From: Octopus vulgaris
Lineage: Eukaryota
Direction: 5' to 3'
Assembly (NCBI GenBank): GCA_951406725.2
Contig: OX597823.1
Span: 111,600,001-111,664,000 of the forward strand
DNA length: 64,000 nucleotides
Made by a program: the position numbers and the translations under genes. Within the stretch, counting starts at the first letter, position 1, and the number at the start of each line of letters is the position of its first letter. Below are positions 41,861-42,323 of this stretch, one piece after another. The notes below the pieces were generated by a model. It was not told the DNA's origin, ran no database searches, and was given only the letters and a program-made list of their open reading frames with translations.

Positions 41861-42323
41861 TATAATTAAGGGCTCCTAAATAAGGATGCCAAGTGCTAGG
41901 GACACAAAAAAGGGATAAATTTATCGAGAGAGAAAATCAAAAACATTTACCAATAACAATACATCTCGGACTGTGAAAAGTTAAGATCTGCAAGTTGTTT
42001 AGATCAACACATGGTCTAACGCACTGCGCATCTCGATTTAACTTAGGCGTCTCGCTGATGAAACCAGCCTTAGCAAACATATTCTGTCTGTTTTGCTAGA
42101 AAGAGGTAGAAACTGATCAGTCCGAGATGTATTGTTATTGGTAAATGTTTTTGATTTTCTCTCGATAAATTTATCCCTTTTTTGTGTCCCTAGCACTTGG
42201 CATCCTTATTTAGGAGCCCTTAATTATATTTCTATATGAATAATATTTTGTCTAATGACTAATTCGTCCTTTGTGCTGGGCCACTGGTAGTAATCTATAT
42301 TATTACCCTTTTGATTATATTCA
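41861..42323 (+). mobile_element. PLE-like element with inverted pseudo-LTR arms, HHR and 3' tail, flanked by (TA)n
   Basis: 41861-41973 is a near-perfect reverse complement of 42118-42228, followed by a ~95-bp unpaired tail. Confidence 0.8.
42047..42130 (+). ncRNA. type I hammerhead ribozyme motif, core intact
   Basis: GCGTCTCG-CTGATGA-AACC...GGTA-GAAA-CTGATCAG-TC-CGAGATGT. Stem I has up to 8 bp with G-U pairs, stem III is the palindrome ACTGATCAGT, and the triplet is GUC. Confidence 0.87.

Follow-up and report, generated by a model that had tools for sequence, protein, structure and literature searches.

The layout regarded as standard for Penelope-like elements (PLEs) combines an inverted 5'-truncated copy, a one-sided tail of 30–40 nt, and a bias toward microsatellite targets (PMC8557442, PMC3846280, PMC2377424). 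PAc, the Poseidon element of Anolis carolinensis, is a predicted dimer that cleaves and extends both strands, with two internal start sites by which the tail is defined (PMC11167929). Ribozyme cleavage is described as dispensable for this element: in vitro it uses mostly unprocessed RNA, ribozyme-dead mutants insert normally, and RNA-seq reads with an end at the cut are reported to be lacking (PMC11167929). Recently active Penelope families have been reported from Octopus vulgaris, in passages that make no mention of ribozymes (PMC13282606).

Here, we describe a 463-nt insert without a long reading frame in a 64-kb stretch of O. vulgaris DNA (the window). It carries a predicted hammerhead ribozyme and is likely to have arisen by ordinary Penelope-type insertion, not as a footprint of ribozyme cleavage, its inverted arm having likely been copied from RNA that was uncut at the ribozyme.

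Architecture of the Insert and Its Host Repeat

The insert comprises a main copy of a repeat family and an inverted second copy, both truncated at the 5' end (table 1). The 114 nt of the inverted copy are the reverse complement of 112 nt of the main copy with 0 substitutions and one 2-nt (GA/TC) indel, and the outermost 5–6 nt of these arms are indistinguishable from the (TA)n target. The inner breakpoint (42117/42118) lies 5 nt 5' of the predicted cut and 1 nt off the center of the palindrome, and at the junction the continuation of the arm overlaps the start of the main copy by 3 nt (TGA), offset by a 2-nt TG repeat. A young age of the insert is suggested by arm identity, although gene conversion between such close inverted arms could also homogenize them. 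Self-comparison of the window revealed one direct copy of the family and, elsewhere in the 64 kb, no second long inverted repeat for comparison. A hairpin at 41978–42044 was not significant (z = −1.62; 13 of 200 shuffles equally good). The arm also holds a short-intron-like segment of 53 nt (GT...polypyrimidine-AG, 42141–42193), of which a family variant at 42191 retains the YAG; an intron at this position is unsupported, with zero joints in the run contigs described below.

Both ends of the insert lie within (TA)n, where a target-site duplication is unreadable. The two halves of the host SINE are colinear on either side of the insert and are separated by ~8–18 nt in five other near-complete copies in the window. 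Its 5' half carries a tRNA-like A box (42609–42599) and B box (42565–42555), and similar motifs with 1–2 mismatches to the box consensus were present in all eight SINE heads checked; ARAGORN found no tRNA gene. We take this repeat to resemble octopus SINEs. The (TA)n adjoining the tail measures 138 nt against the ~8–18 nt between the halves of the other copies; it may have expanded during insertion or later. Through a 4-nt deletion seen in this SINE copy alone, 42474–42485 has become a 12-nt reverse-complement match to the ribozyme (42105–42116), probably by chance, and Tandem Repeats Finder reported larger tandem units in the window at 2860–3226 (184 nt ×2) and 28416–28745 (116 nt ×2.8).

The first-pass annotation had described near-identical inverted arms of ~111 bp, a right arm starting at 42118 inside stem III, a tail of ~95 bp, and insertion within the internal (TA)n of a SINE, and had read an inverted pseudo-LTR with a tail as a hallmark of PLEs. 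These observations stand with minor adjustment of length: the breakpoint falls within the palindrome, the tail is one-sided and 93 nt long, the inverted copy is 5'-truncated, and halves of a tRNA-headed SINE flank the insert.

Table 1. Coordinates of the insert, its predicted hammerhead motif, and the host repeat in the window
Feature	Position	Strand	Basis or remark
Host SINE-like repeat, 3' half	41607–41830	−	74–86% identity to 5 other near-complete window copies
(CA)/(TA)n target microsatellite, left side	41828–41859		Merely a short repeat in other copies
Inverted 5'-truncated second copy (left arm)	41860–41973	−	Without ribozyme core; tail-less 3' end facing outward
Main 5'-truncated copy of repeat family (pseudo-LTR-like end)	41974–42322	+	Contigs of runs X1, X2, X4, and X10
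Type I hammerhead motif, Penelope-like kind	42047–42130	+	Core and stem pattern; predicted
10-nt perfect palindrome (stem III, predicted dimer contact)	42112–42121	+	Self-duplex −13.6 kcal/mol
Right arm	42118–42229	+	Stops at 42229, where other family members also have their 3' end
Predicted self-cleavage bond after GUC (42120–42122)	42122–42123	+	Hammerhead consensus
One-sided tail, 93 nt	42230–42322	+	Family sequence according to run contigs
Long (TA)n, right side of target	42323–42460		69.5 copies
Host SINE, 5' half	42455–42615	−	85–89% identity to 7 other near-full-length matches

An Abundant Family with Two 3' Ends

A listing of public runs gave 24, none of them marked as RNA. From four of these (X1, X2, X4, and X10, representing four studies and two organism labels), all contigs were aligned to 41940–42336, with X10, possibly an RNA run, used for sequence variants alone. 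On 41968–42336, 431 (X1), 260 (X2), 442 (X4), and 52 (X10) contigs aligned; the middle, the arm, and the tail thus all belong to one abundant family. Contigs reach at most 30 letters beyond the aligned stretch. Upstream of 41974, the family continues with other sequence (four X1 contigs and X4 record 25), which identifies 41974 as a truncation point and the inversion as specific to this copy. One X10 contig joins (GT)n to the family at 41972–41974, close to where the main copy begins; synthesis may stop repeatedly at 41974, or the two copies may share a truncated source. No contig covered 41940–41967 and none showed the inversion as a joint, so that the junction is known from this assembly only, contigs being informative of presence and not of absence.

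The family has two recurrent 3' ends, at ~42229 and at 42322. Four X4 contigs enter (AT)n at the arm end, where the true end is ~42229 and alignment up to 42237 reflects chance AT matches. Among the 32 records listed (1158 further exist), records 6 and 8 (X1), 23 and 24 (X2), and 32 (X4) cross 42322 into (AT)n with 4–8 differences; some of these records may represent one locus in different runs. The ends resemble each other: of 309 positions compared with the tail end, the arm end has the highest score, in a post hoc comparison of AT-rich sequence, and CCCTT...ATTATAT is common to both (42216–42232 and 42306–42322). Once the (TA)n target is nicked, this motif could base-pair with it. A small hairpin precedes each of them (~42200–42218 and 42287–42308).

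The two arms agree at all eight family-variable sites checked, including 42133, where the window's base accounts for ~1% of X1 depth, indicating that both stem from one lineage. The longer form of the arm indel is present elsewhere in the family (two contigs each in X1, X2, and X4), and the indel fits the use of two templates but also slippage. Diverged sister subfamilies retain the long hairpin of loop II, with a CUGACGA core and other stems (42066–42107; loose ends at 42067, 42073, and 42113), and a low-depth locus in X1, X2, and X4 (records 1, 17, and 26; 41979–42071) departs from the family 3' of 42071, halving the ribozyme.

Predicted Hammerhead Ribozyme

The hammerhead core (CUGANGA, GAAA, and UH) is present and closed by an 8-bp stem I (42047–42054 with 42123–42130), with CUGAUGA at 42055–42061 and GAAA at 42109–42112. 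No other motif in the window reaches a stem I length of 8 bp, and local dinucleotide shuffling produced none in 200 shuffled windows. The predicted cut follows 42122, as in the first-pass annotation. Rfam returned 0 matches at the gathering score and no hammerhead among 16 weak matches (E ≤ 10). In public collections, the exact motif gave one chance match in viral contigs and none in metagenomes; a degenerate version gave none in viral contigs and 40 in metagenomes, 0 of which had a stem I longer than 3 bp or similarity to the element. Adjacent to the core, A42062 lies opposite A42108 at the position of the G10.1–C11.1 pair, which is therefore absent, and no variants at either base were found among the 40 of 64 variant rows listed. 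The presence of A·A in place of G10.1–C11.1 lowers the claim that the ribozyme is active.

The palindromic stem III is preserved in family variants, with 10 nt here and 12-nt and 8-nt forms elsewhere. A +AT variant, giving the 12-nt palindrome, was found in all four runs, and the 8-nt variant, which has a GUA site, in X2 (as a loose end) and X10 (where its changes were ascribed to one contig through shared depth). An A>G change at 42119 without a change in its partner, seen in one contig each of X1 and X4, leaves a G–U in the palindrome. By analogy, retention of the palindrome is consistent with the dimer-type ribozymes of Penelope-like elements (PMC4209133).

In the predicted monomer fold, the core CUGAU pairs with the palindrome, giving −23.1 kcal/mol compared with −15.4 kcal/mol for the hammerhead fold (7.7 better), and in a cofold of two copies the palindromes pair with each other. 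The folding energy of the ribozyme region alone was not significant (z = −1.61). The palindrome holds the complement of the core CUGAU (42055–42059 vs. 42116–42120), by which the predicted monomer locks its own core; dimer pairing via the palindrome would release this strand. Addition of the left arm in silico lowered the pair probability of stem I from ~1.0 to 0.0, with that of stem III ~0 in either case. The earlier proposal that the left arm would act as an off switch is thus supported in silico with respect to the loss of stem I, but such a switch would add little because the monomer fold is predicted to be inactive even without the left arm.

Comparison with Described Elements

Like endonuclease-bearing (EN+) PLEs (Penelope/Poseidon, Neptune), the locus combines 5' truncation, an inverted truncated 5' copy, a one-sided tail, a terminal-repeat hammerhead, and a microsatellite target, as described in PMC8557442, PMC3846280, and PMC2377424. 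It differs from them in its tail of 93 nt rather than 30–40 nt and in being known from non-coding features. The adjacency of a 5'-truncated copy to an inverted truncated copy and the two recurrent 3' ends, atypical in the 93 nt between them, are as expected of PLEs, and we conclude that the insert is probably the end of an endonuclease-bearing Penelope-like element, its sequence pointing to this membership through non-coding features, with no reverse transcriptase or endonuclease frame in the 463 nt.

The resemblance to PAc extends to two recurrent 3' ends downstream of the hammerhead and an AT-rich target (PMC11167929), and PAc-style priming of both strands would, by analogy, yield exactly such a head-to-head product. 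The starts described for PAc are ~30–40 nt apart and non-homologous to the target, whereas those of the insert are 93 nt apart and both have ATAT that could pair with (TA)n; unlike PAc as described, the insert has no ORF starting at the ribozyme. Features in common with the Penelope-type hammerheads described in PMC4209133 are a type I topology, an extra base after CUGAUGA, a palindromic helix III, and a predicted dimer. The insert differs from these in A·A for the conserved G10.1–C11.1, a stem II that has a base of 3 bp and an insertion forming a long hairpin, and a stem I of 8 bp.

Metazoan non-LTR retrozymes are likewise described as non-coding, a few hundred bases long, and equipped with a type I hammerhead (PMC7229834; 10.64898/2026.07.22.740005). 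In these accounts they form head-to-tail tandems with canonical ribozymes, whereas the insert is a solo, head-to-head structure. We rejected this class on the lack of a tandem: one core is present at the locus and no go-back joint was listed in the contigs of the four runs, which report presence only.

Origin of the Inverted Arm

In the explanation that we hold to be slightly more likely than not, a member of an abundant, hammerhead-bearing, and likely Penelope-like family inserted with 5' truncation of both copies, the inverted arm likely derives from uncut RNA, and two separately primed cDNAs were joined head to head. The element protein would cut both strands of the SINE (TA)n, and each target end would prime reverse transcription at an internal start, at 42322 (with tail) or 42229 (without). 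One cDNA would halt at 41974 and its counterpart at 42118 before the pair were joined. This two-start explanation is supported by the recurrence of both outer ends with (AT)n in other copies and by the CCCTT...ATTATAT motif that these ends share. As 42118 lies inside a predicted stable hairpin, a stop there close to the cut site needs no cleavage. Counting against this explanation are the TGA overlap with its TG offset, which also fits fold-back synthesis, a breakpoint nearer to the cut than uniform expectation, the length of the tail, 93 nt against the published 30–40, and the lack of a reverse transcriptase or endonuclease frame in the family sequence examined. Under a uniform model, a single end would fall within 5 nt of the cut in 4–7% of cases and inside the ribozyme in 33–55%, before allowing for post hoc choice.

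The first-pass annotation had suggested that the inverted arm may have been copied as cDNA from the 3' cleavage product, leaving a genomic footprint of ribozyme processing. Such a cDNA would start no further 5' than 42123, but the arm includes 42118–42122, with five of five bases 5' of the cut matching, and even in the strictest parse, which treats the last TG as a junction duplication, it crosses the cut by three bases. Family sequence upstream of 41974 matches 42118–42122 at one of five positions and differs at the junction base, which argues that the five crossing bases were not supplied by the other copy. Most likely, then, the scissile bond of the template had not been cut and the suggestion is not borne out, unless the enzyme jumped the nick or the RNA had been religated.

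A single cDNA folding back on itself is the first alternative to two starts, and we regard it as unlikely. Having stopped at 41974, it would have used a short overlap to self-anneal near 42118, been copied outward, and been joined to the far target end via ATAT (42226–42229). The TGA common to the arm continuation and the main copy start, offset by the TG repeat, and the identity of the arms at every substitution site would be accommodated by this process, and self-priming has been proposed for inverted junctions, as presented in PMC3846280. However, the overlap is unclean, with two extra nucleotides, and the arm terminates where other family members end. There is also the 2-nt indel between the arms: its longer form occurs in the family, which fits two templates but also slippage.

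Structure could alternatively have directed the stop. Two RNAs paired via the palindrome, or one inactive hairpin, would stall synthesis on the second template, and ends would cluster without cleavage. The breakpoint 1 nt from the palindrome center, conservation of the palindrome at 8, 10, and 12 nt in family variants, the predicted self-duplex (−13.6 kcal/mol) together with palindrome pairing in the two-copy cofold, and X2 record 19, which departs from the family at ~42054, the 5' edge of the core, are all in line with such a stop. We nevertheless consider it improbable: there is a single breakpoint, the main copy was read through the same structure, and the chance of a stop anywhere in the ribozyme is already 33–55%. 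Moreover, no many-ended position was called and no joint was listed in the run contigs, which are low-powered for this purpose, and the 42119 A>G variant leaves a G–U in the palindrome.

A weakened form of the cleavage idea appears very improbable; here the enzyme would cross the nick to the 5' product, still held by pairing, and fall off 5 nt later. This form would account for the 5-nt distance (4–7% under the uniform model), and such ribozymes are described as cleaving weakly, as dimers (PMC4209133, PMC6765202). Against it, the arm holds five bases (three in the strictest parse) 5' of the cut, the usual core-adjacent pair is absent, and the monomer is predicted to misfold. Of 155 loose ends, 24 were listed; none of these fell at 42118–42123 and no pile-up at the cut was seen, in a listing that is weak for clustering because repeats interrupt short-read contigs and its rows follow no stated ranking. 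The anole element is reported to insert normally when cleavage-dead, with no RNA-seq reads starting or ending at the cut (PMC11167929).

A miniature DNA transposon (MITE) with terminal inverted repeats at a TA site, or a fold-back artefact of assembly, is barely credible despite near-perfect inverted repeats bordered by TA: the element ends do not coincide with these repeats, as family sequence continues 93 nt past the right arm and is also found left of 41974, and, besides, the SINE halves are colinear on both sides, the end of the arm is one that recurs in the family, and an indel distinguishes the arms.

Implications for Penelope-Like Elements

The insert can be considered an ordinary example of a layout already described, from which it departs in two small respects, namely the 93-nt tail and the unusual mismatch adjacent to the ribozyme core. 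It matters as a test case given that the formation of inverted PLE ends and the role of the ribozyme are both presented as open questions (PMC8557442, PMC11167929). A literature search, in which subscription papers were sparsely covered, found no paper mapping inversion breakpoints relative to the hammerhead cut, and the family is suited to such mapping, being abundant and having two sharp 3' ends.

We also put forward, as a speculative proposal to which we attach low probability, that the hammerhead palindrome is a dimerization signal keeping two uncut template RNAs in one integration complex, in which both target ends would be primed and the second cDNA would halt at the duplex. If this were true, inverted arms genome-wide would end at the palindrome axis, and dimerization would explain the inverted pseudo-LTR and give the ribozymes of Penelope elements a cleavage-free role.
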